Source of the DNA: Acidobacteriota bacterium
GTDB lineage: Bacteria; Acidobacteriota; Vicinamibacteria; Vicinamibacterales; SCN-69-37
DNA length: 64,000 bases
Reading direction: 5' to 3'
Assembly (NCBI GenBank): GCA_039933635.1
Contig: JBDTNQ010000005.1
Coordinates: forward strand, 33,602-97,601
Shown: positions 689 through 44,507 of the stretch, piece after piece
Layout: each line of letters begins with the position of its first letter
Position numbering within the stretch: the stretch's first letter is position 1
Made by a program: the position numbers and the translations under genes
The notes under the pieces: generated by a model
Told to the model about the DNA's origin: nothing
Database searches by the model: none
The model's input: the letters and a program-made list of their open reading frames with translations, nothing else

Positions 689-741
689 GGGGATCCGGTA
701 CTCCTTGCCGTCAAACCGTCAGTATAGCCGCGGCTCGCCGG

Positions 742-7315: not shown

Positions 7316-8869
7316 TCAAGCCCTCGCCCGTGCAGCTTCCGCTTCCTCGTCCAGCACCTTCACCGTGCGGTCGTAGAGCGCTTCGGCTTCCTCCCGCGTG
7401 TTGGCGACCGCGGTGAGCCCAAGCGCGCCCTGCTCGCCGATGCCGTTGATCATGTGCAGAACCACGCCTTTCTGACGGGATTGATCGAAGTGCAGACCGT
7501 GGCGCGCGACGATGTCGAACAGGTCGTGGTGGGTGAAGGCACGGTACGCGGGGGAATGGACGTGGTCGCTCGCGACGAGGCATTTCGTCTCGCCGAGTGG
7601 CGTCGTGAAGACGCCAGTATCTGCGTCGTACTTCCCGTCCGTCAGGTACTGCAGCGTGAGGAACGGGTGCGTGGTCCCGCCCTTCCGGAGATTGATCTCG
7701 ATCGCGTAGACCTCCCACTGGTCCTGCTCGTTCAGCACCGTCACGAAGTCGAGCGCAAAGCGCCCGAGCACGCCTTCCTTCGCGAGTCGCCGGCCGACCT
7801 TCAGGGCTTCCGCCATGATCGTGGTCGCGTACTCCGGACTCGCGGGAAACTTGCAGCCGAGGTAGGCCTGGCCACTGGGTCCACCGAGCATCTGGTCGTG
7901 GGTCGACAGCGGCTCGATCTCGCCGAGTGGGGTCACCCGCAGTTGGGCGCTGGGGCTCCGGAACTCGCGTCCGGCAATCAGTTCTTCGACGATGCCCCCG
8001 TGCTCCTGGAGTTTCTCGACGTAGCGACTCCACGTCATCTTGGCGGACTCGAACTTCATCGCCTTCACGCAATCCAGGATGGCGGCGCGTTCGCCCGCGT
8101 CACCGGGAGCGGGCACGCCGCTGAGATCGACATTGGCGTTGCCGGCGCCTGACACGCCCTCGTTCAGCTTCGCGACGATCTTCGTGATGGCCGGCTTCTG
8201 TTTCCGCATGCCGGCAATCGCGTCCACCATCTGCTCCGGGGTGTGCAGGTCCTCGACTCCGAGCGGGTGGGACACGCCTTCCTCCGAGAACACCTTACGC
8301 GCGCCGCTCTTGGTTCCGAGATGAAAGCACTTCGGATCGGCGCCGTACATCGGGATGCCCAGCCTGATGGCCAGTTCCTTCTCGGCATCCGTCGTGGCGT
8401 ACGGCACCAGGTGCGCGCGAGCCGGGTCGAGAATCAACGACTTGATCTCGTCGATGACGCGCGGCCGCGCGAGCAACTTCTCCGTCAGGGTCGCTGCCGA
8501 TCCATCCAGGGGCGTGACGAGGAACAGGCGTTTGCGCGCATGCCCCGCAAACACGCCGGGCAGGAGATCGAGGTAGTAGTCGACCACGTCGTCGTGGATC
8601 GCCTGCGACGTGACGTAAATCAGTCGCGCGCGCGGCTGGCGCAGCAGAAACAGGAGAAAGAGGTAGCGTTCTTCAAGCGCCTGCTGCCGCACGCCCTTCG
8701 CGCCCGAATCGACGCTGAGCGAGGGGACGACCACGATCGTCTGCGGGTCGTGGTTGAAGTCCCCCATGGACTTCCAGAGGGGGGCGAGACGCTGCTGAAG
8801 CGCCTCGAACCGCGCGTTGGCTTCAGCTTCACTCAGACCCAGCGGCTGCGGAGCAAATGTCTCGTCCAC
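7316..8869 (-). CDS. ATP-grasp superfamily carboxylate-amine/peptide ligase, possibly PGM1-related
   Basis: 517-aa ORF with a GTG start. It has a pre-ATP-grasp-like N-terminus (TIVVVPSLSVD...RYLFLLFLLRQPRARLIYVTS), an ATP-grasp core (KIVAKLNEGVSGAGNA) and the metal-binding motif YAIEINLRKGGTTHP. Confidence 0.6.
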   Translation of the reverse strand: MDETFAPQPLGLSEAEANARFEALQQRLAPLWKSMGDFNHDPQTIVVVPSLSVDSGAKGVRQQALEERYLFLLFLLRQPRARLIYVTSQAIHDDVVDYYLDLLPGVFAGHARKRLFLVTPLDGSAATLTEKLLARPRVIDEIKSLILDPARAHLVPYATTDAEKELAIRLGIPMYGADPKCFHLGTKSGARKVFSEEGVSHPLGVEDLHTPEQMVDAIAGMRKQKPAITKIVAKLNEGVSGAGNANVDLSGVPAPGDAGERAAILDCVKAMKFESAKMTWSRYVEKLQEHGGIVEELIAGREFRSPSAQLRVTPLGEIEPLSTHDQMLGGPSGQAYLGCKFPASPEYATTIMAEALKVGRRLAKEGVLGRFALDFVTVLNEQDQWEVYAIEINLRKGGTTHPFLTLQYLTDGKYDADTGVFTTPLGETKCLVASDHVHSPAYRAFTHHDLFDIVARHGLHFDQSRQKGVVLHMINGIGEQGALGLTAVANTREEAEALYDRTVKVLDEEAEAARARA

Positions 8870-8884
8870 GCACGCGATTCTACG

Positions 8885-15642: not shown

Positions 15643-16866
15643 ATGACCTCTCGACTTGGATCCAATCTACCAATCGTCATCGTCGGTGCCCTCGACACGA
15701 AAGGCGCGGAGTTGGCTTTCGTGCGGGACCAGGTTGCCGTGCGTGGGCACCGCACGGTTGTCGTCGACACGGGCGTCCTCGGTCCGCCAGCGTTTGCCGC
15801 TGACGTGACGAACGCGGAGGTCGCCGAAGCCGGTGGCGTGTCAGTTGCGACACTCGTTGGCGCAGCTGATCGTGGTCGCGCTGTGATGGTGATGGCGCGT
15901 GGCGCGGAACGGATTGTGCGCCGCCTGGCCGACGACAAAGGGATCGGCGGCATCATCGGCATCGGCGGGGGCGCGGGCACATCCGTGGCGACGGCGGCGA
16001 TGCGCGCGCTGCCATTGGGTATCCCCAAGGTCATGGTCTCGACCCTGGCCAGCGGCGATGTCAGCGCTTTCGTCGGTGTCGCCGATATCGTCATGGTGCC
16101 GGCTATTGTCGACATCAGTGGGATCAATCGCATCAGCCGCGGCGTGCTCACGCGCGCGGCCGCCGCGGTGTGCGCTATGGCCGACGCGGTCGTGCCCGAG
16201 ACGACCGACCAGCCGCTCATTGCGGCGACGATGTTCGGCAACACGACCGCGTGCGTCGAGGCCGCCCGGATGTCCCTCGAGAGTCGTGGGTTCGAAGTCC
16301 TCGTATTTCACGCCACGGGCACCGGCGGTCGCACGATGGAAAGCCTGATCGACGCGGGCCACATTGCCGGTGTGCTGGACGTCACGACTACCGAGTGGGC
16401 GGATGAGCTCGCTGGCGGCGTGATGACCGCTGGCAGCACACGGCTCGAAGCCGCCGCACGCACTGGCACGCCCGCCGTGGTGGCCCCCGGTTGCGTCGAC
16501 ATGGTCAACTTCTGGGCGCCAGAGACGGTGCCGGAGCGGCATCGCGGGCGGCGCTTCTACCAACACAACGCGAACATCACGTTGATGAGAACGACACCGG
16601 ACGAGAACGCGCAGCTCGGCCGCATCATCGCCGACAAACTCAACGCCTCCGTCGGCCCAGTCAGCGTGTATCTGCCATTGCGCGGCGTGTCGGTCATCTC
16701 GGCGCCCGGCGGGCCGTTTCACTGGCCCGAGGCTGACGACGCGCTCTTCGACGCGTTACGCACGCACCTGAGGGCGGACATTCCGGTGCACGCGCTCGAC
16801 ATGAACATCAACGATCCGATGTTTGCGGCTGCGATGGTCGAGGGGCTTTTAAGCTATTTCCGCTGA
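15643..16866 (+). CDS. UPF0261 / Tm-1-like ATP-binding domain protein
   Basis: 407 aa. The N-terminus IVIVGALDTKGAELAFVRDQV and the overall pattern match the UPF0261 family (N-terminal half of tomato Tm-1). Confidence 0.7.
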   Translation: MTSRLGSNLPIVIVGALDTKGAELAFVRDQVAVRGHRTVVVDTGVLGPPAFAADVTNAEVAEAGGVSVATLVGAADRGRAVMVMARGAERIVRRLADDKGIGGIIGIGGGAGTSVATAAMRALPLGIPKVMVSTLASGDVSAFVGVADIVMVPAIVDISGINRISRGVLTRAAAAVCAMADAVVPETTDQPLIAATMFGNTTACVEAARMSLESRGFEVLVFHATGTGGRTMESLIDAGHIAGVLDVTTTEWADELAGGVMTAGSTRLEAAARTGTPAVVAPGCVDMVNFWAPETVPERHRGRRFYQHNANITLMRTTPDENAQLGRIIADKLNASVGPVSVYLPLRGVSVISAPGGPFHWPEADDALFDALRTHLRADIPVHALDMNINDPMFAAAMVEGLLSYFR

Positions 16867-20340: not shown

Positions 20341-21369
20341 ATGGAACAGCGACGATTGGGCACGTCGGGACTCAGTGTGTCCGTCCTGAGTTTCGGCACG
20401 ATGACGGTGGGCGGCCGCGATCGCTTCGGCAAGATGGGCAATCTGGATGTGACGCAGACGTCGCACATCCTGGACGTGTGCCAGGAAGCAGGGCTCACCA
20501 CCATCGACACCGCCAACATGTACTCGTCCGGCGGTGCCGAGGAGATTCTGGGTGAGGCGCTCAAGGGCCGTCGCGATCAGTTCGTGCTCGTGACGAAGGC
20601 GTTCATGCGGGTCGGTCCCGGGCCGCACGATACGGGCCTTTCGCGCAAACACCTGATCGCGGCCTGCGAGGCGAGCCTGCGGCGGTTGCAGACCGACTAC
20701 CTCGATCTTTACATGGGCCATGAACCCGACATGTTCGTGCCCGTCGAGGAGACCCTGCGCGCGTTCGACGACCTCGTGTCGCAAGGCAAAGTGCGCTACC
20801 TCGGCTGTTCGAATCACTCGGCGTGGCACGTGATGAAGGCGCTCGCGGCGTCCGACCGTCTCGGCCTCGCGCGCTATGTGTGTCAGCAGGTGAACTACTC
20901 GCTGCTGGGCCGCGATGTGGAGCACGAGATCGTGCCGCTCGGCCTGGATCAGGGCGTGGGGATCATGGCGTGGAGCCCGCTTCATGCGGGGTTGCTCACC
21001 GGCAAGTTCCGGCGGGACGTGCGCCCCGACGTGAGCCGCCTCAACGAGCTCGAGGCGCCCGGCACGGTCGACTACGAACGCGTCTATCGGATCGTCGACG
21101 TGCTCCTCGCGATTGCAGCGGAGCGCAACGTGACTGCCGCGCAGGTGGCGTTGAACTGGGTGCTCTCGAAGCCGGGGGTGGACACGGTGATTCTCGGCGC
21201 GCGGCACGAGGCGCAGTTACGGGACAACCTCGCCGCGGCGACCTGGCGGTTGAGCGTCGACGAAGTAGCCCGTCTCGACACGGTCAGCGCGTTGCCCGAA
21301 CCGTACCCGCTCTGGCATCAGCACAAGTTCGGACTGGAGCGGAATCCCAGGCTGCCCAGCGCGCGATAG
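20341..21369 (+). CDS. Aldo/keto reductase
   Basis: RRLGTSGLSVSVLSFGTMT, IDTANMYSSGGAEEILG, DLYMGHEPD and GCSNHSAW are typical of the AKR family. Confidence 0.85.
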   Translation: MEQRRLGTSGLSVSVLSFGTMTVGGRDRFGKMGNLDVTQTSHILDVCQEAGLTTIDTANMYSSGGAEEILGEALKGRRDQFVLVTKAFMRVGPGPHDTGLSRKHLIAACEASLRRLQTDYLDLYMGHEPDMFVPVEETLRAFDDLVSQGKVRYLGCSNHSAWHVMKALAASDRLGLARYVCQQVNYSLLGRDVEHEIVPLGLDQGVGIMAWSPLHAGLLTGKFRRDVRPDVSRLNELEAPGTVDYERVYRIVDVLLAIAAERNVTAAQVALNWVLSKPGVDTVILGARHEAQLRDNLAAATWRLSVDEVARLDTVSALPEPYPLWHQHKFGLERNPRLPSAR

Positions 21370-21519: not shown

Positions 21520-22494
21520 ATGTCGGGTTCCGTGTCGCGGTTCATCGATCTTCACTATCGTCACTTCAATGCGGCGACGCTCAAGGATGCCGCCGACGGC
21601 TACCGCGCCCACGTCGGCCAGGGGGGGCGGATGCTCGTCACGCTGGCCGGCGCGATGAGCACCGCGGAGCTCGGAATTTCGCTGGCCGAGATGATCCGCG
21701 CGGACAAGGTGCATGCGATCTGCTGCACGGGCGCGAACCTCGAAGAGGATGTCTTCAATCTGGTCGCGCATGATCACTACGTGCGCATTCCGCGTTACCG
21801 AGACCTCACCGCCGCCGACGAACAGGCGTTGCTCGAGCGACACCTCAACCGGGTGACCGACACCTGCATTCCGGAAATGGAAGCCATGCGCCGCGTCGAG
21901 AACATCGTGCTCGAGCGGTGGGTCGCGGCGTCGGACACCGGCCGGCGTGCGTTCCCGCACGAGTTTCTCTACGACGTGCTCCTCGATGGCAGTCTGACGC
22001 CGTTCTATCAGGCCGATCCCGCCCATAGCTGGCTGCTCGCGGCGGCCGAACGCCGCCTGCCGATCTTCGTGCCGGGATGGGAAGATTCCACGCTCGGGAA
22101 CGTGTTCGCGGCGCGCTGCATGGATGGCCGCATCGGCCAGGTGTCCACCGTGCGCTCGGGTCTCGAGTACATGATCGAGCTCGCCGAGTGGTACACGCGC
22201 ACGAGCGCCGGCGCGTCGATTGGCTTCTTCCAGATCGGCGGCGGCATCGCCGGCGACTTCCCGATCTGCGTCGTCCCGATGCTGCACCAGGATTTGAGGC
22301 AATCGAACGTACCCCTCTGGGGCTATTTCTGCCAGATCTCCGATTCGACGACGAGCTACGGATCGTATTCCGGGGCCGTGCCCAACGAGAAAATCACCTG
22401 GGGCAAGCTGGCGGCGGATACCCCGTCGTACATCATCGAGTCGGACGCCACGATCGTCGTGCCCCTGATGTTTGCAAAGGTCCTTGGATGGTAG
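21520..22494 (+). CDS. Deoxyhypusine synthase-like (DHS/homospermidine synthase family) protein
   Basis: The ATG at 21520 is preceded by GGGAGG. DHS-like pattern (TLAGAMSTAELG, ICCTGANLEEDVF, IGGGIAGDF) with the catalytic-lysine context conserved (NEKITWGKL; compare SWGK in eukaryotic DHS). Confidence 0.75.
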   Translation: MSGSVSRFIDLHYRHFNAATLKDAADGYRAHVGQGGRMLVTLAGAMSTAELGISLAEMIRADKVHAICCTGANLEEDVFNLVAHDHYVRIPRYRDLTAADEQALLERHLNRVTDTCIPEMEAMRRVENIVLERWVAASDTGRRAFPHEFLYDVLLDGSLTPFYQADPAHSWLLAAAERRLPIFVPGWEDSTLGNVFAARCMDGRIGQVSTVRSGLEYMIELAEWYTRTSAGASIGFFQIGGGIAGDFPICVVPMLHQDLRQSNVPLWGYFCQISDSTTSYGSYSGAVPNEKITWGKLAADTPSYIIESDATIVVPLMFAKVLGW

Positions 22495-23450
22495 TCGTCA
22501 CCGGAGCCGCGGGGTTCATTGGTGCCCGCGTGGTCGAAGCCTTGAAGGCGCGCGGTACGGACGTCGCGTCGGTCGATCATCGCGCCGCGTTCGACGGCCG
22601 TCCGGAACACGCGGGGCTCGATTTTGGCCAGCGCGTCGACGTCGACGACCTGGGGGGCTGGTTGAAGGCCGTCACGATCACGGCGATCGTGCATCTCGGT
22701 GCGTGCACGGACACGCGAGAGATGGACCGGAGCTATCTCAACCGCGTGAATCTCGAGGCCTCGCAGGAGTTGTGGAGTCACGCCACGCGCGCCGGCATCC
22801 CACTCATCTACGCCAGCAGCGCGGCGACCTACGGCGACGGCGCGCTGGGGTATGACGATGACGAGGCGTTGATTGCCCGGCTGCGCCCGCTGAATCCCTA
22901 CGGCCAGTCGAAGCAGGATTTCGACATGTGGGTGCTGGCGCAGGAGCGCGCGGGACACCACCCGAGGGCGTGGACGGGCCTGAAGTTCTTCAACGTGTAC
23001 GGCTTCGGCGAGCGCCACAAAGGCCGGATGGCGAGCGTGGTGCTGCACGCATTCGATCAGGTGCAGAGCCGGGGATTCGTCAGTCTGTTCAGGAGCCACC
23101 GCGACGGAATCGCCGACGGGCACCAGTCGCGCGACTTCGTCTTCGTCGGTGACGTGGTCGAGACGGTTATCGCGATGCTCGATCGTCCGCCGTCACGCGG
23201 CATCTTCAACCTGGGCAGCGGTACCGCGCGAACGTTTCTGGATCTGACCCGCGCCGTGTTCACCGCACTCGACCGGCCAGCCGACATCCGTTTCATTGAC
23301 ACGCCCGTGGATCTGCGGGCGCAATACCAGTACTTCACCGAGGCCCGGATGACCCGCCTCCGCGACGCGGGATTTGCGCGTCACCCGATCGATCTCGAAC
23401 GCGGCGTGGAGCACTACGTGGCTCGACTCAGCCGCGCCGCGCACGTATGA
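22488..23450 (+). CDS. hldD: ADP-L-glycero-D-manno-heptose 6-epimerase-like NAD(P)-dependent epimerase
   Basis: VTGAAGFIG, ASSAATYG, NPYGQSK, FFNVYGFGERHKGRMASV, RDFVFVGDV, IFNLGSG and YQYFTEA parallel E. coli HldD/RfaD. The start overlaps the upstream stop. Confidence 0.75.
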   Translation: MVVVTGAAGFIGARVVEALKARGTDVASVDHRAAFDGRPEHAGLDFGQRVDVDDLGGWLKAVTITAIVHLGACTDTREMDRSYLNRVNLEASQELWSHATRAGIPLIYASSAATYGDGALGYDDDEALIARLRPLNPYGQSKQDFDMWVLAQERAGHHPRAWTGLKFFNVYGFGERHKGRMASVVLHAFDQVQSRGFVSLFRSHRDGIADGHQSRDFVFVGDVVETVIAMLDRPPSRGIFNLGSGTARTFLDLTRAVFTALDRPADIRFIDTPVDLRAQYQYFTEARMTRLRDAGFARHPIDLERGVEHYVARLSRAAHV

Positions 23451-24796
23451 GCGCCCCGATCGAAACGCCCGGACACGACGACGCGCGGATCGCCGGCTGG
23501 GGCGGTGTGTCCGTGCGCGGGCGCGAGGTGCGTTCGGAGGACCTCGAGGAACTGACCCGCGACGTGGTCCTCACGCGCGGGTTGGCGCGTTCCTATGGCG
23601 ACTCCTCGCTGCCTCCGCCGAGCAGTCCCGTCGTGGCCGGCACGGTGCTCGCGGACCGACTGCTCGCGTTCAATCCTGAAACGGGATGCCTGCGCGCGGA
23701 GGCCGGCTACTCGCTCCACGAGCTCTATCGCACGTTCCTGCCGCGGGGCTGGTTCACCCCCGTGTCACCGGGCACGCAGTTCGTCACCCTCGGCGGAATG
23801 GTCGCGGCCGACGTCCACGGCAAGAACCACCACGTGAAAGGATCGATCGGGGGCCACGTGCAGGCGCTGAAGATTCGCGTCGGCACCGGCGAGGTGGTGA
23901 CCTGCTCGCGCGAGGCGTTGCCGGATCTGTTCAGGGCCACGATCGGCGGCATGGGACTCACGGGTCATATTCTCGAAGTCGACCTCACCCTCGAGCGGAT
24001 TCCGTCACCGTGGATTGTCGGCATCCGGCGTCGGATCTCGGACATCGATGAGTTCCTGACGGCTCTGAAGACCGACGCGGCCGAGTGGCCGTTCACCATG
24101 GGCTGGATCGACTGCCTGTCGCGCGGGCGACACATGGGCCGCGGCGTGCTGATGGCGGGTCGATGGGCCACGCCGGCCGAGGCACCAAGGCAGGTGCCGC
24201 GGCACCTGCCCCGCATCACCGTCCCGTTTTCCTGCCCCGAGTGGGTAATGGGCCACACGATGGTCCGCGTGTTCAATGCGGCAATTTATCGCGTGCTGGG
24301 CACGCGGACGCGTCCCAGGGTGCTCCATCCAGAGCCCTTCTTCTATCCGCTCGACGTGCTCCGGCAATGGAACCGGCTCTACGGCGCGCGCGGGTTCACC
24401 CAGCACCAATGTGTGTTGCCGGACACGGCCGGGCCGGCAGCCGTGCGCGGGTTGCTCGAACTGCTGACGCGCCAGGGCGCTGCGTCATTTCTCTGTGTCA
24501 TCAAGGACTGTGGCGACGAAGGCGAGGGTCTGCTGTCATTCCCACGTCGCGGGACATCGATCGCGTTGGACATGCCGATCCGCGACAACACCCAGGCCGT
24601 CGTCGACACGCTCAACGAGTTCGTGGTCGGGGTTGGCGGCCGCGTCTATCTCGCGAAGGACGCGTTCACACGCGCCGATCACTATCGGAAAATGGAGTCG
24701 CGCTTGCCGGAATTCGAAGCGATCCGCCGCCGATGGGATCCGCGGGCACGCTTGAAGAGCGCGCAGTCGGTGCGCCTGCTCGGGGATCAACCATGA
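23447..24796 (+). CDS. FAD-binding oxidoreductase, DprE1-like (decaprenylphospho-beta-D-ribofuranose 2-oxidase family)
   Basis: 449 aa with FAD-binding PCMH-type motifs (RGLARSYGDS, TLGGMVAADVHGKNHH). The C-terminal region is as in DprE1-family enzymes. ATGA overlap with the upstream gene. Confidence 0.7.
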   Translation: MSAPIETPGHDDARIAGWGGVSVRGREVRSEDLEELTRDVVLTRGLARSYGDSSLPPPSSPVVAGTVLADRLLAFNPETGCLRAEAGYSLHELYRTFLPRGWFTPVSPGTQFVTLGGMVAADVHGKNHHVKGSIGGHVQALKIRVGTGEVVTCSREALPDLFRATIGGMGLTGHILEVDLTLERIPSPWIVGIRRRISDIDEFLTALKTDAAEWPFTMGWIDCLSRGRHMGRGVLMAGRWATPAEAPRQVPRHLPRITVPFSCPEWVMGHTMVRVFNAAIYRVLGTRTRPRVLHPEPFFYPLDVLRQWNRLYGARGFTQHQCVLPDTAGPAAVRGLLELLTRQGAASFLCVIKDCGDEGEGLLSFPRRGTSIALDMPIRDNTQAVVDTLNEFVVGVGGRVYLAKDAFTRADHYRKMESRLPEFEAIRRRWDPRARLKSAQSVRLLGDQP

Positions 24797-25530
24797 ACAT
24801 TGTCATCCTCGGCGCCAGCAAAGGGATCGGACGGGCGTTGGCCCGCCAGCTGGCCGAACGCGGCGATCGCCTGTGCCTGCTCGGGCGCGACATCGATGAC
24901 TTGCGGCGCAGCGCGGCCGATATCGCCGTGCGGGCCGGAACCAGCAGCGGCGCGGCGGTCGTAGCGTGCGACCTGGCCGATCCGGACACGTTCGGTCCGG
25001 CCCTTGAAGCCGCGGCAGCGGCGCTGGGCCATGTCGACGTCGTGGTCGTGACCGCTGCCGACTTCGCCACGCAGGCGGTGCTCGAGGCCGATCGAGACCG
25101 ACTGCGCCGCCTCCTCACGGTGAACTTCTCGAACACGGTCCTCTTTTGCGAGGACGCCAGGAAGCGGCTCCTCAGCGCGGGCGGCACCCTGTGCGTCGTC
25201 AGCTCAGTGGCGGGCGAGCGCGGGCGCAAGCCCGTGATCCTCTACGGCGCGACGAAAGCCGGCCTCTCGCGGTATCTTGAAGGGCTCGATCACAAGTATC
25301 GAAGCCAGGGCCTCAAGGTCGTGTGCGTGAAGCCGGGGTTCGTGCGGACGGGGATGACGGCCGGCCTCACGCCGCCGCCGTTTGCGGGCGACCCGCCCGA
25401 CGTGGCGCGGGACATCGTGAAGGCGATCGACCGCGGCACGCCCGTGATCTACACACCCGCAATGTGGGCGGTTGTGATGTTCGTGATTCGGCGGCTGCCG
25501 AGGTTCGTCATGCGCCGGATTGGGTTCTGA
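24793..25530 (+). CDS. SDR oxidoreductase, DprE2-like
   Basis: Begins MNIVILGASKGIGRAL and contains catalytic YGATK. About 245 aa, sitting immediately after the DprE1-like gene with an ATGA overlap, as in dprE1-dprE2 pairs. Confidence 0.65.
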   Translation: MNIVILGASKGIGRALARQLAERGDRLCLLGRDIDDLRRSAADIAVRAGTSSGAAVVACDLADPDTFGPALEAAAAALGHVDVVVVTAADFATQAVLEADRDRLRRLLTVNFSNTVLFCEDARKRLLSAGGTLCVVSSVAGERGRKPVILYGATKAGLSRYLEGLDHKYRSQGLKVVCVKPGFVRTGMTAGLTPPPFAGDPPDVARDIVKAIDRGTPVIYTPAMWAVVMFVIRRLPRFVMRRIGF

Positions 25531-25549: not shown

Positions 25550-26419
25550 ATGACTGCGATGGACACGACAGCATTGGTAGCGCCTGGACGCTTCGTCGGC
25601 GTGATCGGCGCCGGTGTGATGGGACAGACGCTGATGCGCGGGCTGTTGTCCGCGGGCCTCCTGACAAGCGATCAGATCTGGGCCGCCGACCGCAGCGCGG
25701 ACACGCGCGAAACGGTGCGCCGGGATCTGGGCGTCAACGTCATTGAAGAATACTTCGACCTCCTTCCCCAGACCGACCTGGTGTTGCTGTGCGTGAAGCC
25801 GGCCCAGGTCACGGCTGCGCTCGCGACCGCGCGCGACGCAGCGCCGGCCCCGCATACGCTGTTCATCTCAATCCTCGCGGGCGTGACGACGACTCAGCTC
25901 GAACATGCGCTGGGTCTGCCGAATCCGTGGGTCCGCGCGATGCCCAACACGCCCTGTGTCGTGGGTGAGGGCATGACGGTCGTGTGCCGGGGGCGAGATG
26001 CCTCGTCCGCACACGTGGATGTGGCGCATCGCATCTTTTCCGCGGTTGGACGCTGCGAGATCGTCGAAGAGCAGTACTGCAACGCCATTACGGCGCTCAG
26101 CGGCAGCGGTCCCGCCTACATGTACCTGGTGATGGAGGCGCTCGCCGACGCCGGCGTGCGCGTCGGCTTGCCCCGTGGTCTCGCGCTGACGCTCGTCGCG
26201 CAGACGATGCTGGGTGCTGCGACCATGGTGCTTGAAACGGACCGGCACCCGGCCTCCCTCCGCGACGATGTCACGACACCGGCCGGCTGCACGATCGGCG
26301 GCCTGCTCATGCTCGAGGACGGCAAGATCCGGTCCGTGCTCGCGCGCGCGGTTGAAGAAGCCACGCGCATCGTCGATCGTCTCGGGCGGCCCGCCGACCA
26401 CAAAGGCGGGCACGCATGA
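25550..26419 (+). CDS. proC: Pyrroline-5-carboxylate reductase
   Basis: VGVIGAGVMGQTL, MPNTPCVVGEGMT, SGSGPAYMYLVMEALADAG and VTTPAGCTIGGL. The start is uncertain among 25520 (TTG), 25550 and 25559 (ATG). Confidence 0.9.
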   Translation: MTAMDTTALVAPGRFVGVIGAGVMGQTLMRGLLSAGLLTSDQIWAADRSADTRETVRRDLGVNVIEEYFDLLPQTDLVLLCVKPAQVTAALATARDAAPAPHTLFISILAGVTTTQLEHALGLPNPWVRAMPNTPCVVGEGMTVVCRGRDASSAHVDVAHRIFSAVGRCEIVEEQYCNAITALSGSGPAYMYLVMEALADAGVRVGLPRGLALTLVAQTMLGAATMVLETDRHPASLRDDVTTPAGCTIGGLLMLEDGKIRSVLARAVEEATRIVDRLGRPADHKGGHA

Positions 26420-27636
26420 ACGGCACGAGCGATCTGACGGCCGACCAGCTCCTCGCCATCGAGGAGAGCTGGGGCGCGCGCAACTACCACCCGCTGCCGA
26501 TCGTGATCGCGCACGCCCAGGGTGCGTGGGTGACGGACGTGAACGGCCGTCGCTACCTGGATTGCCTCAGCGCCTATTCCGCCCTGAACCAGGGCCACGT
26601 GCACCCGACCATCCTGAAGGCGTTTCAAGAGCAGGCTGCCCGGGTCACGTTGACGTCGCGGGCGTTTCACAACGACCAGTTGCCCCTGCTCTGTCGTGAA
26701 CTGGCCGAGCGCTGCCAGAGCGACACCGTGCTGCCGATGAACACCGGAGCAGAGGCGGTTGAAACCGCCATCAAAGCCGCGCGGCGATGGGGTTACGAGA
26801 AGAAGGGCATCGCGGCGGATGCGGCGGAGATCGTGGTGTGCCGCGGCAATTTTCACGGACGAACGACGACGATTGTCGGGTTCTCGTCCGACGCGGAGTA
26901 CCAACGAGACTTCGGCCCGTTCACGCCGGGATTCGTTCAGGTGCCCTTCGGAGACATCGAGGCGATGCGCGCGGCGATTCGACAGGAAACCTGCGCGGTG
27001 CTCATCGAGCCGATCCAGTGCGAAGCCGGCATCATCATGCCGCCTGACGGCTACCTGCGTGATGTCGCCGACCTCTGTCGCGCCAATGATGTGCTGTTCC
27101 TCGCCGACGAAATTCAGACGGGCCTTGGGCGAACCGGCGCATGGTTCGCGTGCGATCACGAGCAGGTCCGGCCGGACGTCTACATTCTGGGCAAGGCGCT
27201 GTCGGGCGGGTTCTATCCCGTTTCAGCGGTGGTCGGCCGCGCCGACGTCATGGGCGTGTTCACGCCCGGCAGCCACGGCAGCACCTACGGCGGGAGCCCC
27301 CTGGCCAGCGCGGTTGCGCGCGCGGCGTTGCGCGTGCTCGACGAAGAGAAACTCGTGGAACGCTCGGCCACGCTGGGACGCGCCCTCATGAAAGCCCTCG
27401 CGTCTCTTCGCGGCGGCGTGGTCGTCGAGGTGCGTGGCCGCGGGCTGCTGGTGGGGATTGAGCTCGATCGACCCGCTCGTCCGTACTGCGAGCAACTGAT
27501 GGCCCATGGCGTGCTGTGCAAGGAGACGCACGAGCGCGTCATCAGGCTGGCGCCGCCTCTCGTCATCGCCGCCGCGGATTTGCATTGGATGGTCGAGCAA
27601 CTTTCCGCCGTCCTCTCGCCCGGCACGCGCCACTGA
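26416..27636 (+). CDS. rocD: Ornithine--oxo-acid aminotransferase (class III PLP aminotransferase)
   Basis: WGARNYHPLPIVI, YLDCLSAYSALNQGH, FLADEIQTGLGRTG and ILGKALSGG (PLP Lys). ATGA overlap with proC. Confidence 0.85.
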   Translation: MNGTSDLTADQLLAIEESWGARNYHPLPIVIAHAQGAWVTDVNGRRYLDCLSAYSALNQGHVHPTILKAFQEQAARVTLTSRAFHNDQLPLLCRELAERCQSDTVLPMNTGAEAVETAIKAARRWGYEKKGIAADAAEIVVCRGNFHGRTTTIVGFSSDAEYQRDFGPFTPGFVQVPFGDIEAMRAAIRQETCAVLIEPIQCEAGIIMPPDGYLRDVADLCRANDVLFLADEIQTGLGRTGAWFACDHEQVRPDVYILGKALSGGFYPVSAVVGRADVMGVFTPGSHGSTYGGSPLASAVARAALRVLDEEKLVERSATLGRALMKALASLRGGVVVEVRGRGLLVGIELDRPARPYCEQLMAHGVLCKETHERVIRLAPPLVIAAADLHWMVEQLSAVLSPGTRH

Positions 27637-27692: not shown

Positions 27693-28229
27693 CTACCGCA
27701 TCGGCGGATACTTCGCGAGCTTGCGCTGCAGCGACCGGCGGTGAATCTGAAGGACGCGCGCGGCTTCAGAGATGTTGCCCTGACAATCCACCAGCACGCG
27801 ATTGATGTGCTCCCACTCGACCCGATCGAGTGACATGGGCTGCAGCTGGGGCGTGTCGGCGCGCGGGCCGGAACCGCGTTCGAAGGCGGCGAGAATCTCG
27901 TCCGCGTCGGCTGGCTTCGTCAGATAGTGCGTGGCGCCCCGGCGGATCGCCTCGATCGCGGTGGCCACGCTGCCGTAGCCGGTGAGCACGACGATGCGGG
28001 TGTTGGGGTCGATCTGGATCAAGGTTGGGATCAGGTCCAGGCCGCTGCCGTCCGGCATGCGTAGATCCAGCACGACCAGTTCGGGCGGATCCTCGCGCGC
28101 GAGCGTTTCAGCTTCACGGGAGTTGGCGGCCTGACGCACGTCGATTCCGCGCGACGCGAACGCGCGCGCCAGCCGGCCACGCAGCGCGTCGTCGTCTTCA
28201 ACGAGCAGAAGCAGGGGAGACTCGGTCAT
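27693..28229 (-). CDS. RegA/ActR/PrrA-family redox response regulator
   Basis: Receiver domain (LLLVEDDD...VVLDLRMPDGSG) plus a short Fis-type HTH (GNISEAARVLQIHRRSLQRKLAK). Start at the ATG at 28229, which overlaps the kinase stop as ATGA. Confidence 0.85.
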   Translation of the reverse strand: MTESPLLLLVEDDDALRGRLARAFASRGIDVRQAANSREAETLAREDPPELVVLDLRMPDGSGLDLIPTLIQIDPNTRIVVLTGYGSVATAIEAIRRGATHYLTKPADADEILAAFERGSGPRADTPQLQPMSLDRVEWEHINRVLVDCQGNISEAARVLQIHRRSLQRKLAKYPPMR

Positions 28230-29545
28230 GGTTGGCTGTCGGGACCCCTCGTGGCGTCTCGAGGCAGCGTGATCGTAATCGTAGTGCCTTCGCCTTCGTT
28301 GGAGCGCAGATGCATCGTGCCGCCGAGCTGATCGATCGTCGAGACGGTCACGAAGAGGCCCAGACCCATACCGCTGCCTTCGGGGCGCGTGGTGAAGAAC
28401 GGTTCGCCCGCACGGGACTGGACGTGTGGGGACATGCCGGCGCCCCGGTCGGCAATGGTGAAGATCACGCGGTCGCCCTCGTGGCTGGCCGAGAGGGACA
28501 CGCGATCGCCGTTGGACGATGCCTGGATGCCGTTGCGCACGATGTTGACGATGGCTCGCGAGACGGCCCCGACGGGCCATCGCGTCTCGACCCCGGAGGG
28601 CAGTGAGACGTCGAGCCGGGCGCGATCGTCGGGAGGCAGCAGCGCCAGCAGGTCCGTCTCGAGGCTGGACAGCGATTGTGGGGTCGGCGCTTCGCCGGCA
28701 AGCTCACCCGATCGGCCCGCCATGTCCTGCAGCACGCGTTTGCAGCGATCGATTTCCGAGCGAATCAGGCGGACGTCCTCGTGCCGCGCGGCGGCGCCGG
28801 GCACGTCCGCCAGACTGCGTTCCAGTTCGCGTGCGGCGACGGCGATCGTGCCGAGCGGCGTGCTCAATTCGTGCGCGGCGCCGGCGGCCAGCGTGGCGAG
28901 GCTGATCATGTGCGCGTCCCGGTTACGACGTTCCCGCAGCGTCATCAGCGCGCGGTCGCGCCGCTCGATCAACGTCGCGAGACGCGCGACGACCAACGCC
29001 ACGATGAGTGAGGTGGCGCCGAAGGCCAGCCACATGCCTTCGACGTGCATGGCAATCTCGGGGTGCATCAGCCGCGCGGCCCGGAGCTGCTGGGATGGCA
29101 TCAGGAACAGCACCCCATATCCCGTGATCGAGAGCGTCGTTACGATCCACGTCCACACGCGTCCGAGCACCAGCGCCGCGAGCACGATGTCGACGAGGTA
29201 GAAGATGCTGACCGGGTTCAGGATGCCGCCGCTGTCGAGCAGCAGGGCGGACAGCCCGACGACATCGGCGGACACGAGCCAGCCGCCAATGGCGAGCGGC
29301 GGCGTGGGACGCCGGCGCAAACGGTACGCGAGCCAGATGTTCGAGACGGCCCCGGCGACGACGAACAACGTGGGACCGACGAACGACGTCGGCACACCCA
29401 GGCCGCGCCAGCCGGCGAAGATCGCGCCGGCCCCCGCGGCCACGCCGGCCCAGCGCACCATCACGAGCCAGGCCAGCGCCACGGCGTCTTGTGAGGACTC
29501 GTCACCGCGAAATGGGCGCGCCGGGGAGAGGAGAGACGGGGACAC
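28226..29545 (-). CDS. RegB/ActS/PrrB-family redox-sensing histidine kinase
   Basis: Polytopic N-terminus containing GGILNPV (compare the RegB quinone motif GGxxNPF). H-box AAHELSTPLGTI. Cys in EIDRCKRVLQDM at the position of the RegB redox-box Cys. HATPase motifs (DRGAGM, GSGMGLGL). GTG start. Confidence 0.8.
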   Translation of the reverse strand: MSPSLLSPARPFRGDESSQDAVALAWLVMVRWAGVAAGAGAIFAGWRGLGVPTSFVGPTLFVVAGAVSNIWLAYRLRRRPTPPLAIGGWLVSADVVGLSALLLDSGGILNPVSIFYLVDIVLAALVLGRVWTWIVTTLSITGYGVLFLMPSQQLRAARLMHPEIAMHVEGMWLAFGATSLIVALVVARLATLIERRDRALMTLRERRNRDAHMISLATLAAGAAHELSTPLGTIAVAARELERSLADVPGAAARHEDVRLIRSEIDRCKRVLQDMAGRSGELAGEAPTPQSLSSLETDLLALLPPDDRARLDVSLPSGVETRWPVGAVSRAIVNIVRNGIQASSNGDRVSLSASHEGDRVIFTIADRGAGMSPHVQSRAGEPFFTTRPEGSGMGLGLFVTVSTIDQLGGTMHLRSNEGEGTTITITLPRDATRGPDSQP

Positions 29546-40391: not shown

Positions 40392-40424
40392 GCGCCGCTG
40401 TCCACGAACTGATCGAGACCGCGT

Positions 40425-41270
40425 GTGCGCACTCCGCCAGCCGGGCAGTCGACCCGCACCGTCCGAAACCCGGTTCGTCATCGAGGCCCGGTTGTCCGGC
40501 TGGTGGCCGCGTTGGTGCTCGTCGCCGTCGGGCTCATGGTGACGCCGCTGCGCGCGGCATCGACCGCGGCCCAACGTGACGAGCCACTGACGATTCGCGG
40601 CCGCGAACAGGTGCTGCACCTCTACGGTTCGCCTGGCGGCGAGCCGGTGGTGATTGCGAGCGGCGACGGCGGCTGGGTGCACCTGGCACCGCATCTGGCG
40701 GAGTTCCTGGCCGCGCGAGGCTATTTCGTCGTGGGCGTGGACAGCCGGGCCTATCTCGAAAGCTTCACGTCGACCTCGTCGTCGCTGGCGAAATCCGACG
40801 TTCCGGGTGATTTCCGAGTGGTTCTCGCGCGTGCGATGGGGGCCGCGGACCGGAAACCGGCGTTGATCGGGGTGTCGGAGGGGGCCGGCCTGGCGGTGCT
40901 GGCCGCCGGTGATCCCGGCGTCCAGCACGTGATTCGTGGCGTGCTCGTGGTGGGGTTGCCCGACCTGAATGAACTGGCGTGGCGCTGGAGGGACGACCTG
41001 ATCTACGTGACTCACGGTGTGCCCAATGAACCGCTGTTCAGTGCCGCCGCAGCCATCGCCCGTGTGGCGCCGGTGCCCGTCGCCGGCATTTACGCGAGCC
41101 ACGACGAGTTCGTGCCCGAGGCGGATGCCCGGCGCGTGGCCGACTCCGCGGGGGAGCCGAAGCGCTTCTGGACCGTCCCAGCGGCAAATCACCGATTCAG
41201 CGACAATCTCAACGAGCTGGATACGCGCCTCGCCGACGCATTGGCGTGGATGTCGGGTCCAGGGCGCTGA
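40425..41270 (+). CDS. VirJ/AcvB-like alpha/beta hydrolase (putative aminoacyl-phosphatidylglycerol hydrolase)
   Basis: Signal/TM segment, then VIASGDGGWVHLAPHLAEFLAARGYFVVGVDSRAYL (VirJ-type SGDGGW motif) and a nucleophile elbow GVSEGAG. It lies immediately upstream of mprF. Confidence 0.65.
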   Translation: MRTPPAGQSTRTVRNPVRHRGPVVRLVAALVLVAVGLMVTPLRAASTAAQRDEPLTIRGREQVLHLYGSPGGEPVVIASGDGGWVHLAPHLAEFLAARGYFVVGVDSRAYLESFTSTSSSLAKSDVPGDFRVVLARAMGAADRKPALIGVSEGAGLAVLAAGDPGVQHVIRGVLVVGLPDLNELAWRWRDDLIYVTHGVPNEPLFSAAAAIARVAPVPVAGIYASHDEFVPEADARRVADSAGEPKRFWTVPAANHRFSDNLNELDTRLADALAWMSGPGR

Positions 41271-41279
41271 GGTGTTGGC

Positions 41280-43829
41280 GTGGGTCAGCGACTGCGACGT
41301 GCGCTCCCCGCTCTTATCGGCGTGCTCCTCTTCGGCACCGCGCTGGCCGTGCTGCACCGCGAACTGGCGGCGCTCACGTGGCGTGACCTCAGTCGCGATC
41401 TACTCGCCACGCCGTTCACGCGGCTGGGTCTGGCGCTGCTCTTCACTGTCATGAGCTACGCCATCCTCGCCGCATACGACCTGCTCGGCTTTCAGAGCAT
41501 CCGCAAGCGCCTGCCTGCGGCGAACGTGGTGCTCGCGTCCTGTCTGTCCTACGCCATCGCCCACAGCATCGGCTTCTCGATCGTGTCCGGCGCCTCGATT
41601 CGGTATCGGTTCTACACGCGCTGGGGGGTGACCGCCGGCGAGCTTTCCCAGCTTCTCGTGTCGTACACAGTGACCTTCTGGCTCGGCGTGTTCGTGCTGG
41701 GCGGGATCAGCCTGATCGTGGCGCCGCCGTCTTCGATCCTGGGGTGGCCGGTCGGCGCCTGGGCGCCATTCGCCGGCGAAGCGCTGATCGCCGTGCCGAT
41801 CGTGTTCGTGCTGATGACTATGGTGCGCCGCGCGCCGCTGACCGTCGCCGGAATGGCCATGCCATGGCCGTCACCTGGGACCGCCCTGCTGCAGGTCATC
41901 GCATCGGTAAGCGACTGGGCCATGACGGCAGCCGTGTTGTTCGTGCTGCTGCCGTCCGGCGCGATATCGTTCTGGGCTTTTGTCGGGCCATTTCTCCTGG
42001 CCGTCCTGGCCGGCGGCGCCAGCCACCTGCCTGGCGGGATCGGCGTGCTCGAGGGCACGCTCGTCCTGCTTCTGCAGCCGTACATCACCAGCGCGGAGCT
42101 CGTGCCGCGCCTCGTCGTGTACCGCGCCTGCTACTACCTGCTGCCGTTCGCGATCGCGCTGGTCGTGATGACGGCTGACGAACTGCGGCAGCGCCGGGCG
42201 CAGGCTGCGCGGTGGAGCTCGCGGCTCGGCGAGATCACCGAGCAAATCACTCCAATGCTCTTCGGCTCCCTCGCCTTCGTCGCCGGCGTTGTGCTGCTGT
42301 TTTCGGGCGCGACGCCCGCCGCGCGCGGACGCCTCGACCTGCTGCATCGATGGCTGCCGCTCGGAGTCATCGAGGTCTCCCACTTCACCGGCAGCGTCGT
42401 TGGCGCCTGCCTGCTGATTCTGTCGCAGGGCCTGCGACGACGGTTGGACAGTGCCTACTACCTGACTGCGACGGCCCTGGCTGTCGGGGCGGCTGTGTCC
42501 CTGCTAAAGGGGCTCGACTACGAAGAGGCCATTGCGCTCGTGGCCATGTTCGCCATCTTTCGGCGGGCGCGGCCGGCGTTCGACCGCCGCGGCGCGTTCT
42601 TCGACACCACGTTCTCGCCGCTCTGGGTCGCCTCGGTCGTGTCGGCGATTGGCGCATCGGCCTGGTTGGGACGTTTCGCATTCAAGCACGTTTCGTTCGC
42701 GGATCAGCTCTGGTGGCAATTCGAGCTCCACGGACAGGCCTCGCGGTCGCTGCGCGCCGCCGTTGGCGCGGCGATGGTGGCGCTGGTCTTCGGCGTCACG
42801 CGTCTCGTCCGGCGCGCGCCGCACGAGGTCACCGCTCCAACGGACGCGGATCTCGATGACGCGATGCGGATCGTGCGCGCGCAGTCGGACACGGCGCCGA
42901 ACCTCGTGTTCCTGCGTGACAAGGGCCTGATTTTCGATGCCGACCGCCGGGCGTTCCTCATGTATGCGGTGCAGGGGCGCACGTGGGTTGCCTTGGGCGA
43001 TCCGGTCGGGCCCGACGATGCGGCCGCGGGCATCATCCGGGCGTTCCTGGAGCGGTGCGACGACTTCGGTGGCGTCCCTGTCTTCTACGAGGTGAGCGCG
43101 AAACACCTGCATCGCTACGCCGACGTGGGACTGACGTGCGTCAAGATCGGCGAAGAGGCTCGTGTCGACCTCGCGCGTCTGACGCTCGACGGGCCCGCCG
43201 GCGCCAAATACCGCAAGGTGATCCGGCGGCTCGAGAAGGACGGAGGCAGGTTCCGCGTGCTCCCCGCCGACGAGGTGCCCGGCGTGCTTCCCGCGTTACG
43301 TGCGGTCTCCGACGACTGGCTGTCGGCGCGTGCCGGCTCCGAGAAGGGTTTCTCCCTCGGCTTCTTCGACGACGGGTATCTCATGAGGTTTCCTGTCGCG
43401 GTCGTCGAGGTGGACGAGCGAGTGGTAGCGTTCGCCACGTTGTGGCCCGGCGCGGACCGGGGGGAACTCTCCGTCGACCTCATGCGGTTCCACCACGACG
43501 CCCCGAAGGGCACGATGGAGGCCCTGTTCGCCCATCTCCTCGTGTGGGGTCAGGCTGAGGGATTTCGCTGGTTTGCCCTCGGCATGGCCCCGCTTTCCGG
43601 CGTGGAGCGGTCGCCCTCCGCGTCGCTCTGGAACCGCGTGGGCGCGTTCGTGTTCGCGCATGGGGGCCGGGTCTACAACTTCCAGGGCCTGCGTGCCTAC
43701 AAGGAGAAGTTCGATCCCATTTGGAGTCCGAGGTACCTCGCGTATCAGGGTGGCGGTCACTTGCCGCGACTGCTTGCCGACATCGCCGCCTTGGTGGCGG
43801 GTGGTTATCAACGACTGTTCCGGAGCTGA
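41280..43829 (+). CDS. mprF: Bifunctional lysylphosphatidylglycerol flippase/synthetase MprF
   Basis: 849 aa. Polytopic N-terminal flippase half plus a C-terminal aminoacyl-PG synthase (DUF2156) half (FLMYAVQGRTWVALGDPVG...FSLGFFD...YNFQGLRAYKEKFDPIW). Confidence 0.9.
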   Translation: MGQRLRRALPALIGVLLFGTALAVLHRELAALTWRDLSRDLLATPFTRLGLALLFTVMSYAILAAYDLLGFQSIRKRLPAANVVLASCLSYAIAHSIGFSIVSGASIRYRFYTRWGVTAGELSQLLVSYTVTFWLGVFVLGGISLIVAPPSSILGWPVGAWAPFAGEALIAVPIVFVLMTMVRRAPLTVAGMAMPWPSPGTALLQVIASVSDWAMTAAVLFVLLPSGAISFWAFVGPFLLAVLAGGASHLPGGIGVLEGTLVLLLQPYITSAELVPRLVVYRACYYLLPFAIALVVMTADELRQRRAQAARWSSRLGEITEQITPMLFGSLAFVAGVVLLFSGATPAARGRLDLLHRWLPLGVIEVSHFTGSVVGACLLILSQGLRRRLDSAYYLTATALAVGAAVSLLKGLDYEEAIALVAMFAIFRRARPAFDRRGAFFDTTFSPLWVASVVSAIGASAWLGRFAFKHVSFADQLWWQFELHGQASRSLRAAVGAAMVALVFGVTRLVRRAPHEVTAPTDADLDDAMRIVRAQSDTAPNLVFLRDKGLIFDADRRAFLMYAVQGRTWVALGDPVGPDDAAAGIIRAFLERCDDFGGVPVFYEVSAKHLHRYADVGLTCVKIGEEARVDLARLTLDGPAGAKYRKVIRRLEKDGGRFRVLPADEVPGVLPALRAVSDDWLSARAGSEKGFSLGFFDDGYLMRFPVAVVEVDERVVAFATLWPGADRGELSVDLMRFHHDAPKGTMEALFAHLLVWGQAEGFRWFALGMAPLSGVERSPSASLWNRVGAFVFAHGGRVYNFQGLRAYKEKFDPIWSPRYLAYQGGGHLPRLLADIAALVAGGYQRLFRS

Positions 43830-43832
43830 ATC

Positions 43833-44507
43833 ATGCGTATTCTCGTGGTGGAAGACGATCGAAAAGTGGCGGGTTTCGTTCAGGGCGGACTCGAGCAGGA
43901 GGGCTACGCCGTCGATGTGCTACACGAGGGCATCTCGGCCGGCGCTCACGCCTCGACGGTGGATTACGACGCCGTCGTACTCGACCTGATGCTCCCCGGA
44001 CGTTCAGGGCTGCAGGTGCTGCGCGACATCCGCGCCCGGAAGCCCGCGCTGCCTGTCTTGATCCTGACGGCCAAGGATTCGGTCGACGCGCGCGTGGCGG
44101 GCCTCGACAGCGGCGCCGATGACTACATGGCCAAGCCGTTCGCGTTGGCCGAGCTCTCGGCGCGCTTGCGCGCGCTGTTGCGCCGTGGATCGCCGAAGGA
44201 GACGCGCTTGCGCGTCGCCGATCTCGAAATGGATACGAGCCGGCGCATCGTGAACCGCGCCGGGAGATCCATCGAGCTGAAGCCCAAGGAGTACGCGCTG
44301 CTCGAGTTCCTCATGCGGAACAGCGACCGTCCCGTGACGCGGTCGCTCATCATTGAACATGTCTGGGACATTCACTTCGACAGCGTCAGCAACGTCGTCG
44401 AAGTGCATATCAACTCGCTGAGGAACAAGGTGGATCGCGGCTTCCCGTCGCCGTTGATCCAGACGGTGCGCGGTGTCGGCTATATGCTGACCGACAGATC
44501 CTCGTGA
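43833..44507 (+). CDS. OmpR-family response regulator, CusR/CzcR-like
   Basis: MRILVVEDD...VVLDLMLPGRSG...ADDYMAKPF plus a winged helix (IQTVRGVGYML). Confidence 0.85.
   Translation: MRILVVEDDRKVAGFVQGGLEQEGYAVDVLHEGISAGAHASTVDYDAVVLDLMLPGRSGLQVLRDIRARKPALPVLILTAKDSVDARVAGLDSGADDYMAKPFALAELSARLRALLRRGSPKETRLRVADLEMDTSRRIVNRAGRSIELKPKEYALLEFLMRNSDRPVTRSLIIEHVWDIHFDSVSNVVEVHINSLRNKVDRGFPSPLIQTVRGVGYMLTDRSS

Follow-up and report, generated by a model that had tools for sequence, protein, structure and literature searches.

A SpeY-like gene in a probable six-gene mosaic operon with envelope-sugar and proline genes of a Vicinamibacterales-type acidobacterium

Organisation of the operon

A stretch of 64,000 nucleotides from an Acidobacteriota bacterium (GenBank assembly GCA_039933635.1, contig JBDTNQ010000005.1, positions 33,602 to 97,601 of the forward strand; hereafter the window, numbered from its first nucleotide) was analysed around a gene of the deoxyhypusine synthase (DHS) superfamily, designated below as speY-like. 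This gene opens a compact operon on the plus strand of the window, the G+C content of which is 64-70%. The genes of the operon, and the aldo/keto reductase (AKR) gene preceding it, are as follows.

20341-21369, plus strand: AKR gene (PF00248, 249 bits)
21520-22494, plus strand: speY-like gene, DHS superfamily, 324 aa (PF01916, 132 bits)
22488-23450, plus strand: hldD, ADP-glyceromanno-heptose 6-epimerase, 320 aa (TIGR02197)
23447-24796, plus strand: dprE1-like gene, FAD-dependent polyprenyl-phospho-ribose 2'-oxidase, 449 aa (PF01565, NF053785)
24793-25530, plus strand: dprE2-like gene, short-chain dehydrogenase/reductase (SDR) type reductase, 245 aa (PF00106, NF053786)
25550-26419, plus strand: proC, pyrroline-5-carboxylate reductase (TIGR00112, 266 bits, above the cutoff of 197)
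26416-27636, plus strand: rocD-type ornithine--oxo-acid aminotransferase (OAT) gene (TIGR01885, 511 bits, above the cutoff of 378)

The speY-like gene starts with the ATG at 21520, which has a GGGAGG Shine-Dalgarno sequence 8 nt upstream, and its 3' end reads CTT GGA TGG TAG with the TAG stop at 22492-22494. The hldD start codon at 22488 lies inside the last speY-like codons, resulting in an overlap of 7 nt (ATGGTAG), while the hldD/dprE1-like and dprE1-like/dprE2-like junctions are ATGA overlaps at 23447-23450 and 24793-24796, respectively. An initial annotation of this DNA had described the four same-strand open reading frames (ORFs) with these overlaps as a module, and all of the overlaps were confirmed. 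The tight coupling of the four genes therefore stands, but the extent of the unit does not, as it runs on across a gap of 19 nt between the dprE2-like stop and the start of proC at 25550 to the OAT gene at 26416, which overlaps proC by another ATGA and is the final gene. The operon consists of six genes with overlaps at four of its five junctions. A rough survey of the whole window gave a short overlap at 2 of 19 scored same-strand junctions, one of them being proC/OAT; its filter did not score the speY-like/hldD, hldD/dprE1-like and dprE1-like/dprE2-like overlaps. Because some genes were missed or wrongly called by the GC3-based caller, these and several of the neighbourhood counts below are approximate. 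Compared with this rough survey, the four overlapping junctions of five indicate that the compaction of the operon is locally unusual.

The AKR gene ends 150 nt before the operon without overlapping it and belongs to the conserved local synteny, with the AKR-DHS order repeated in locus L010 and in the P0292 contig, the latter from a Vicinamibacterales relative. A promoter and terminator scan of the region from 19.8 to 28.8 kb revealed nothing above shuffled expectation.

The speY-like protein and its clade

The speY-like protein contains the peptide VPNEKITWGKL, whose second lysine corresponds in the alignment to Lys329, the catalytic lysine of human DHS, confirming the WGK context (NEKITWGKL) that had been recognised initially. 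This lysine is invariant across 19 clade members. Equivalents of human Lys329, Trp327 and Glu323 are kept in the clade, whereas Asp243 is replaced by Asn and Asp316 by Tyr, and the human KHH motif with His288 is replaced by GDF (GGGIAGDF, with D/F at the His288 position). Non-acidic residues at the positions of Asp243 and Asp316, together with a kept catalytic Lys, Glu323 and Trp327, are common to the speY-like clade and to CdmS/SpeY of Thermus, an enzyme coupling two agmatines that has F204 and L286 at these positions (PMC10981699). With eukaryotic and archaeal DHS (EC 2.5.1.46) the protein shares the Pfam DS domain, the NAD-binding glycine motifs and the Glu323/Trp327/Lys329 equivalents; it differs from them in the replacement of Asp243, His288 and Asp316, in the distance of its PDB matches (E 1e-7 when searched as one protein, 3e-23 to 8e-16 for a clade profile), and in that no eIF5A-type substrate is evident.

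An Acidobacteriota metagenome-assembled genome has an annotated protein identical to the speY-like protein, whose closest named relatives are from Vicinamibacterales; it is 70-76% identical to proteins of Verrucomicrobiota, Gemmatimonadota, Bacteroidota, Bdellovibrionota, Planctomycetota, Chloroflexota, Myxococcota and Gammaproteobacteria. A protein library clustered at 50% contained few full-length representatives of the clade, and annotations label its members merely as 'deoxyhypusine synthase family protein'. This large and highly conserved clade, found in eight or more phyla, seems to have been missed by current annotation.

Gene context of the speY-like clade

All ORFs lying no more than 6 kb from the DHS gene in 87 distinct loci were clustered, and the neighbours proved very variable. 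Polyamine-related genes, encoding agmatine-deiminase-like (AIH-like) proteins, SpeA, N-carbamoylputrescine-amidase-like (NCPAH-like) proteins, pyruvoyl arginine decarboxylase (PvlArgDC), arginase-family, histone-deacetylase-family and spermine-synthase-like proteins, were found in approximately 13 of the 87 loci and were at least as frequent as sugar-gene neighbours. Four gammaproteobacterial loci (from Woeseia, Chromatiales and another genome) contained an AIH-like gene, the DHS-superfamily gene (DS, 72-73% identical to the window protein) and speA on one strand. The NCPAH-like gene followed speA in three of these, while the contig of the fourth, L052, breaks off within speA. The AIH-DS-SpeA-NCPAH clusters of Woeseia and Chromatiales are located as follows.

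L042, 1072-6170: AIH-DS-SpeA-NCPAH cluster
L022, 5731-11036: AIH-DS-SpeA-NCPAH cluster
L054, 8830-13852: AIH-DS-SpeA-NCPAH cluster

SpeA of these clusters scored above the profile cutoffs; the AIH-like protein reached 282 bits against the aguA cutoff of 382 and the NCPAH-like protein approximately 292 bits against the aguB cutoff of 410. Such sub-cutoff scores are as expected of enzymes specific for N1,N9-bis(guanidino)homospermidine (G44G), and they agree with the proposal of a substrate-shifted DIH and C44C amidohydrolase (PMC13625781). PvlArgDC was encoded directly upstream of DS in the locus of a Terriglobia metagenome-assembled genome (MAG), and an arginase-family gene occupied this position in a Caldilineaceae MAG. 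The window protein shared 71% identity over 322 aa with a protein of Caldilinea aerophila, and the Caldilinea loci had the order PvlArgDC-Arginase-DS. The agmatine-gene arrangements around these clade members correspond to the SpeY clusters of Li et al. (2026). SpeY of C. aerophila, from the PvlArgDC-Arginase-DS type among the SpeY gene clusters described by Li et al. (2026), makes G44G in Escherichia coli, an activity reported there for other SpeY proteins as well (PMC13625781).

The agmatine clusters around relatives that are 69-74% identical to the window protein favour its assignment to SpeY, and we consider the window gene likely to encode a SpeY-type diagmatine synthase of homospermidine biosynthesis. 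The window protein and SpeY/CdmS (Thermus thermophilus, Anabaena and C. aerophila) have the DHS fold and the catalytic lysine in common, and relatives of the window protein are clustered with arginine decarboxylase and an agmatinase- or deiminase-type hydrolase. It differs from curated SpeY proteins in forming a separate uncurated subclade, and from the SpeY clusters in that its gene adjoins hldD and no agmatine gene. The SpeA/AIH/NCPAH and PvlArgDC/Arginase clusters also led us to drop the idea of a third clade without known function, which the NCBIfam equivalog scores of about 100 bits and the lack of a reported function for bacterial DHS homologs in reviews had suggested.

Several observations weigh against the SpeY-type assignment. 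As judged by alignment, the His288 position is not conserved. The protein scored 85 bits with NF002699 (cutoff 500) and 107 bits with NF001980 (cutoff 450), both SpeY-type equivalog models, and 82 bits with the DHS equivalog TIGR00321 (cutoff 304), which places it below every NCBIfam DHS/SpeY equivalog cutoff (82-107 bits against 304-500). Clade members down to 36% identity and the member from the Woeseia cluster were likewise below the SpeY cutoffs (approximately 85-135 bits); the NCBIfam SpeY models therefore do not cover the speY-like subclade. The Caldilinea proteins of the clade (P0461/P0437) were not matched by accession to the SpeY assayed in PMC13625781, and no arginine decarboxylase, agmatinase or iminohydrolase gene was found in the 64-kb window.

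Genes of the histone-deacetylase family, whose products are possibly acetylpolyamine amidohydrolases, were found repeatedly in the vicinity of speY-like genes of Bacteroidota and Acidobacteriota; the one in L044 is part of a same-strand order DHS-hldD-histone deacetylase.

L040, 8278-9201: histone-deacetylase-family gene
L067, 761-1663: histone-deacetylase-family gene
L044, 7774-8790: histone-deacetylase-family gene
L027, 1191-2123: histone-deacetylase-family gene

Identity of the envelope-sugar and proline enzymes

Profile searches assigned the first four proteins of the operon to the DHS, HldD, DprE1 and DprE2 families, in agreement with the initial annotation. For the second protein, likeness to HldD along its length was borne out by 312.6 bits with TIGR02197 (cutoff 274.6) and by full-length PDB matches to 4ej0 (E 2.4e-47) and to E. 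coli HldD, 1eq2 (E 1.5e-44, residues 1-317); it fell below the stricter model PRK11150 (184 against 452). The YxxxK, HKGRMASV (HKGxMASV) and RDFV motifs are visible in the alignment with 4ej0. The full-length alignment, the TIGR02197 score and the catalytic YxxxK and HKGxMASV motifs are thus shared with E. coli HldD (RfaD), whereas the setting differs, the window gene being placed not in a waa/gmh cluster for the lipopolysaccharide (LPS) core but between a polyamine gene and dprE1/E2. A Pfam scan of the 43 window ORFs identified no other ADP-heptose or heptosyltransferase genes.

The third and fourth proteins were recognised as a DprE1/DprE2 pair both by NF053785 and NF053786 and by matches to the Mycobacterium tuberculosis structures. 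The DprE1-like protein scored 335 bits with NF053785, below the cutoff of 500, and matched M. tuberculosis DprE1 over approximately 400 aa (E 8e-62), with DVHGKNHH and YLAKDA aligning to mycobacterial DIHGKNHH and YTAKDS. The catalytic residues of M. tuberculosis DprE1, the His132/Lys134 motif and Lys418, are kept. The position of Cys387, the covalent target of benzothiazinones in the M. tuberculosis enzyme, is occupied by Ala, and the DprE1-like protein is predicted to be insensitive to these compounds. The DprE2-like protein scored 149 bits with NF053786 (cutoff 250), and its best PDB match was M. tuberculosis DprE2 (21gq_C; E 7e-28, full length). Both models are probably tuned to Actinomycetota.

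Among 80 metagenomic loci surveyed for homologs of the DprE1-like protein (36-71% identity), a DprE2-like match followed the DprE1 homolog in 64, and in 14 of the 16 others DprE1 is no more than 600 nt away from the end of its contig. A gene for a UbiA-type phosphoribosyltransferase was present within approximately 7 kb in 40 of the 80 loci, mostly directly adjacent, including relatives of 49-59% identity; it was absent near DprE1 relatives of at least 62% identity with long flanks. The initial annotation was also right that the window lacks a UbiA-type gene and glycosyltransferases, with no UbiA-type gene found in it by tblastn and no glycosyltransferase among its 43 ORFs by Pfam scan. DprE1/E2-assisted pentofuranose systems are known for Gram-negative glycans, and a pair of the window type fits these (PMC11127046). 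With the mycobacterial enzymes and those systems the window pair has in common the adjacency of an FAD-oxidase and an SDR reductase, the key DprE1 residues and, in its more distant relatives, a UbiA-type gene next door. The window pair differs in its scores below the equivalog cutoffs, in Ala for Cys387, and in the lack of a UbiA-type gene, phosphatase, flippase and GT-C transferase in the window or near its closest relatives. An unrelated FAD/SDR pair was ruled out by the PDB matches, the paired loci and the UbiA-type neighbours. On the basis of these alignments and neighbourhoods, the predicted function is that of an ordinary polyprenyl-phospho-ribose 2'-epimerase which has drifted from its partner genes in this lineage.

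The last two genes correspond to the RocD/ProC route from ornithine to proline, as both proteins are above the TIGRFAM cutoffs and their genes are ATGA-coupled; they differ from that route in sharing their operon with polyamine and envelope-sugar genes.

Rearrangement of the gene blocks among relatives

Besides the window, the full AKR-DHS-HldD-E1-E2-ProC-OAT order was found only in L010, with a DHS protein 88% identical to that of the window. In none of 80 species genomes from other lineages did DprE1/E2 lie 10 kb or less from the DHS gene, and the DHS-hldD-dprE1-dprE2 order, a recurrence of which the initial annotation had suggested looking for, was not seen beyond the window and this one relative. 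Within the same wider synteny, the P0292 contig had AKR-DHS-E1-E2 without HldD, with 7 nt between DHS and E1. Other Vicinamibacterales relatives contained HldD-E1-E2-ProC-OAT without DHS, DHS-ProC-OAT, or E1-E2 alone. In other genomes, DHS proteins of 76-79% identity had unrelated neighbours, namely yidC, a DUF362 gene, a Zn-dependent alcohol dehydrogenase (Zn-ADH) gene with an isocitrate-dehydrogenase-family gene, or a spermine-synthase-like gene. These varying block combinations rule out the four-gene order as a conserved module.

Proposed function of the operon

We regard the locus as probably a lineage-specific six-gene mosaic operon of a Vicinamibacterales-type acidobacterium that joins four functionally separate blocks. 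In the first, the SpeY-type enzyme, with bound NAD and the catalytic lysine, would convert two agmatines to N1,N9-bis(guanidino)homospermidine, as suggested by orthology and by gene context in relatives, and a ureohydrolase or iminohydrolase encoded elsewhere would yield homospermidine. Equivalog-level profiles and conserved motifs suggest that HldD epimerises ADP-D-glycero-D-manno-heptose for the LPS core. DprE1/DprE2 would oxidise and re-reduce C2' of polyprenyl-phospho-ribofuranose to give polyprenyl-phospho-arabinofuranose, a donor which periplasmic GT-C transferases may use, with the UbiA-type phosphoribosyltransferase and the transferase presumably encoded elsewhere. RocD and ProC would convert ornithine to proline, and the start/stop overlaps may provide for co-expression of the blocks.

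The four blocks are probably not steps of one pathway; they are shuffled together and apart among close relatives. As proC and rocD are without a place in a glycan pathway, co-translation in this operon is no sign of a common pathway. The initial annotation had suggested a single envelope-glycan pathway that might include a polyamine-derived modification; the relatives in SpeY clusters, the presence of proC and rocD in the operon and the variable synteny do not support this. The kinds of enzyme in the operon are already known, and it is their combination that is particular, as a lineage-specific mosaic and not as a new single pathway.

If this interpretation is correct, its practical value lies in the annotation of a large conserved DHS-superfamily clade that curated SpeY models do not capture and that gene context places in the newly described agmatine-dependent homospermidine pathway. 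It would also illustrate that overlapping start and stop codons in soil bacteria of high GC content are no sign of a common pathway.

Recurrent adjacency to sugar genes and alternative explanations

The adjacency of speY-like genes to sugar genes tells against complete independence of the blocks. The commonest partner of speY-like genes was an epimerase that passed TIGR02197 wherever tested, and direct adjacency to hldD was found in 8 of the 87 loci, in at least five arrangements, in Verrucomicrobiota and Acidobacteriota (among them L044, L058, L063, L071, L075, L077 and L078). The hldD gene was downstream of DHS in Verrucomicrobiia, subdivision 3, one acidobacterium and the group of the window itself, upstream in Chthoniobacterales and divergent in Thermoanaerobaculia. 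In L071 and L077 (Verrucomicrobiota) it was located 7 to approximately 40 nt downstream of DHS, with an AIH-like gene nearby. Adjacency to dprE1/E2 was observed in at least three unrelated lineages, represented by the window group, L103/L111 and L167. L103 and L111, which share 83% identity, and probably also L108 belong to a divergent DHS subclade that is approximately 54% identical to all members of the main clade; L167 has a GC content of 42% and the order E1-E2-DHS. There was no UbiA-type gene near any of the four loci.

L103, 733-3333: DHS-like gene beside dprE1/dprE2
L108, 2-2388: DHS-like gene beside dprE1/dprE2
L111, 8908-12057: DHS-like gene beside dprE1/dprE2
L167, 2744-6009: DHS-like gene beside dprE1/dprE2

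Two single-copy genes in a genome of approximately 4,000 genes are expected to be adjacent in approximately 0.05% of genomes, and random gene order would give roughly 0.05 speY-like/dprE1-E2 adjacencies per 80 loci. Both kinds of recurrence exceed this expectation, indicating that the speY-like/hldD and speY-like/dprE1-E2 adjacencies are not random. The link between DHS and sugar genes that the initial annotation had drawn is therefore upheld at the level of these pairs, whereas the clusters for agmatine-to-homospermidine conversion come close to the case it had named as refuting such a link. The repeated adjacency possibly reflects a regulatory or physiological link between the supply of polyamines and the envelope. 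It does not count as evidence for a polyamine-sugar conjugate, because an enzyme to join the two is absent and the packing of proC and rocD in the operon is equally tight.

These recurrences are also the principal argument for reading the operon as a functional envelope module, in which homospermidine or its guanidino precursor would be made together with heptose- and arabinofuranose-containing surface glycans, either for covalent attachment or as a counter-ion shielding anionic LPS. In addition to the occurrence of the hldD partner in two phyla and several orientations, and of dprE1/E2 in unrelated lineages, junctions that remain tight after rearrangement, as in the P0292 contig, are in keeping with such a module, as are genes of the PMT_2 type (ArnT-like GT-C) that two Vicinamibacterales relatives have in divergent orientation to the speY-like gene (L005:6378-7832, minus strand; L007:4498-7786). 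Approximately 90% of loci with the speY-like clade, however, have neither partner, the blocks are found apart in close relatives, proC and rocD have no plausible role in it, and there is no transferase, ligase or aminotransferase able to join a polyamine to a sugar. In the literature library searched, no paper connected DHS homologs with DprE1, and nothing relevant was found on homospermidine with LPS. We consider a functional envelope module unlikely. The more general proposition that SpeY-type genes of Acidobacteriota, Verrucomicrobiota and some others are functionally tied to outer-envelope glycan synthesis, with the polyamine as a glycan substituent or LPS counter-ion and the repeated adjacencies as the trace of that link in the genomes, is unlikely as well. 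The adjacency of speY-like genes to hldD or dprE1/E2 is nonetheless a modest, testable lead on the coordination of polyamines with the Gram-negative envelope.

It is very unlikely that the HldD-like SDR acts with DprE1/E2 on a lipid-linked pentofuranose, giving an unusual pentofuranose donor instead of ADP-L,D-heptose. It would then resemble ORF13, an auxiliary SDR epimerase that makes undP-xylofuranose (undP, undecaprenyl phosphate). SDR epimerases diversify polyprenyl-phosphate pentofuranoses, and systems with several epimerases have been noted (PMC11127046). The ATGA overlaps joining the genes for the HldD-like protein, E1 and E2, their occurrence as a block in L010, L094 and L173, and the lack of another heptose-pathway gene in the window are compatible with this. 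The protein nevertheless passes the HldD equivalog cutoff and matches HldD structures over its full length, including the HldD-specific HKGxMASV and RDFV motifs in the 4ej0 alignment. Moreover, adjacency of HldD to E1/E2 is limited to DprE1 relatives of approximately 69% identity or more, and the P0292 contig has DHS-E1-E2 without HldD.

A protein-modifying deoxyhypusine synthase, acting on a bacterial elongation factor P (EF-P) family protein or another lysine-bearing protein, is hardly credible despite the conserved fold and catalytic lysine, the very high conservation across phyla (approximately 70%) and an EfpL/YeiP-like gene at 113-718 (minus strand) of the window, as the spermidine-binding Asp243, His288 and Asp316 are replaced, the recurrent neighbours of the clade are agmatine and polyamine enzymes, and a 2026 review finds no evidence for modification of EF-P by bacterial DHS homologs. 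Hypusination of EF-P itself was rejected because an efp-like gene occurs within 10 kb of DHS in only 1 of 95 loci and the EF-P-family gene of the window is 21 kb away and encodes Arg, not Lys, in the PTARGG loop. The product of this gene resembles an EfpL/YeiP paralog rather than canonical EF-P.

Flanking genes

Downstream of position 27636, genes for a response regulator and a histidine kinase (27693-29545, minus strand) are convergent to the operon and may regulate this region. The regulator is small, with Response_reg and HTH_8 domains, and together with the kinase it flanks the operon region in the window, L010, L011 and the P0292 contig; the pair is present in all close relatives, whatever blocks separate it from the DHS gene. 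In the two relatives with a PMT_2-type gene, L005 and L007, a Zn-ADH gene and a gene of the isocitrate/isopropylmalate-dehydrogenase family come after the DHS gene. The conserved flank upstream of the operon includes genes for an ATP-grasp/PGM1_C protein (7316-8884, minus strand) and for a UPF0261 protein, to which no function has been assigned to date (15643-16866, plus strand), both of which are also found near the operon in relatives. Approximately 15 kb downstream of the operon, genes for a VirJ-like hydrolase, an 852-aa MprF-like aminoacyl-phosphatidylglycerol synthase (LPG_synthase_C), an OmpR-type response regulator and a HAMP histidine kinase (40413-45961, plus strand) form a membrane-charge modification unit.

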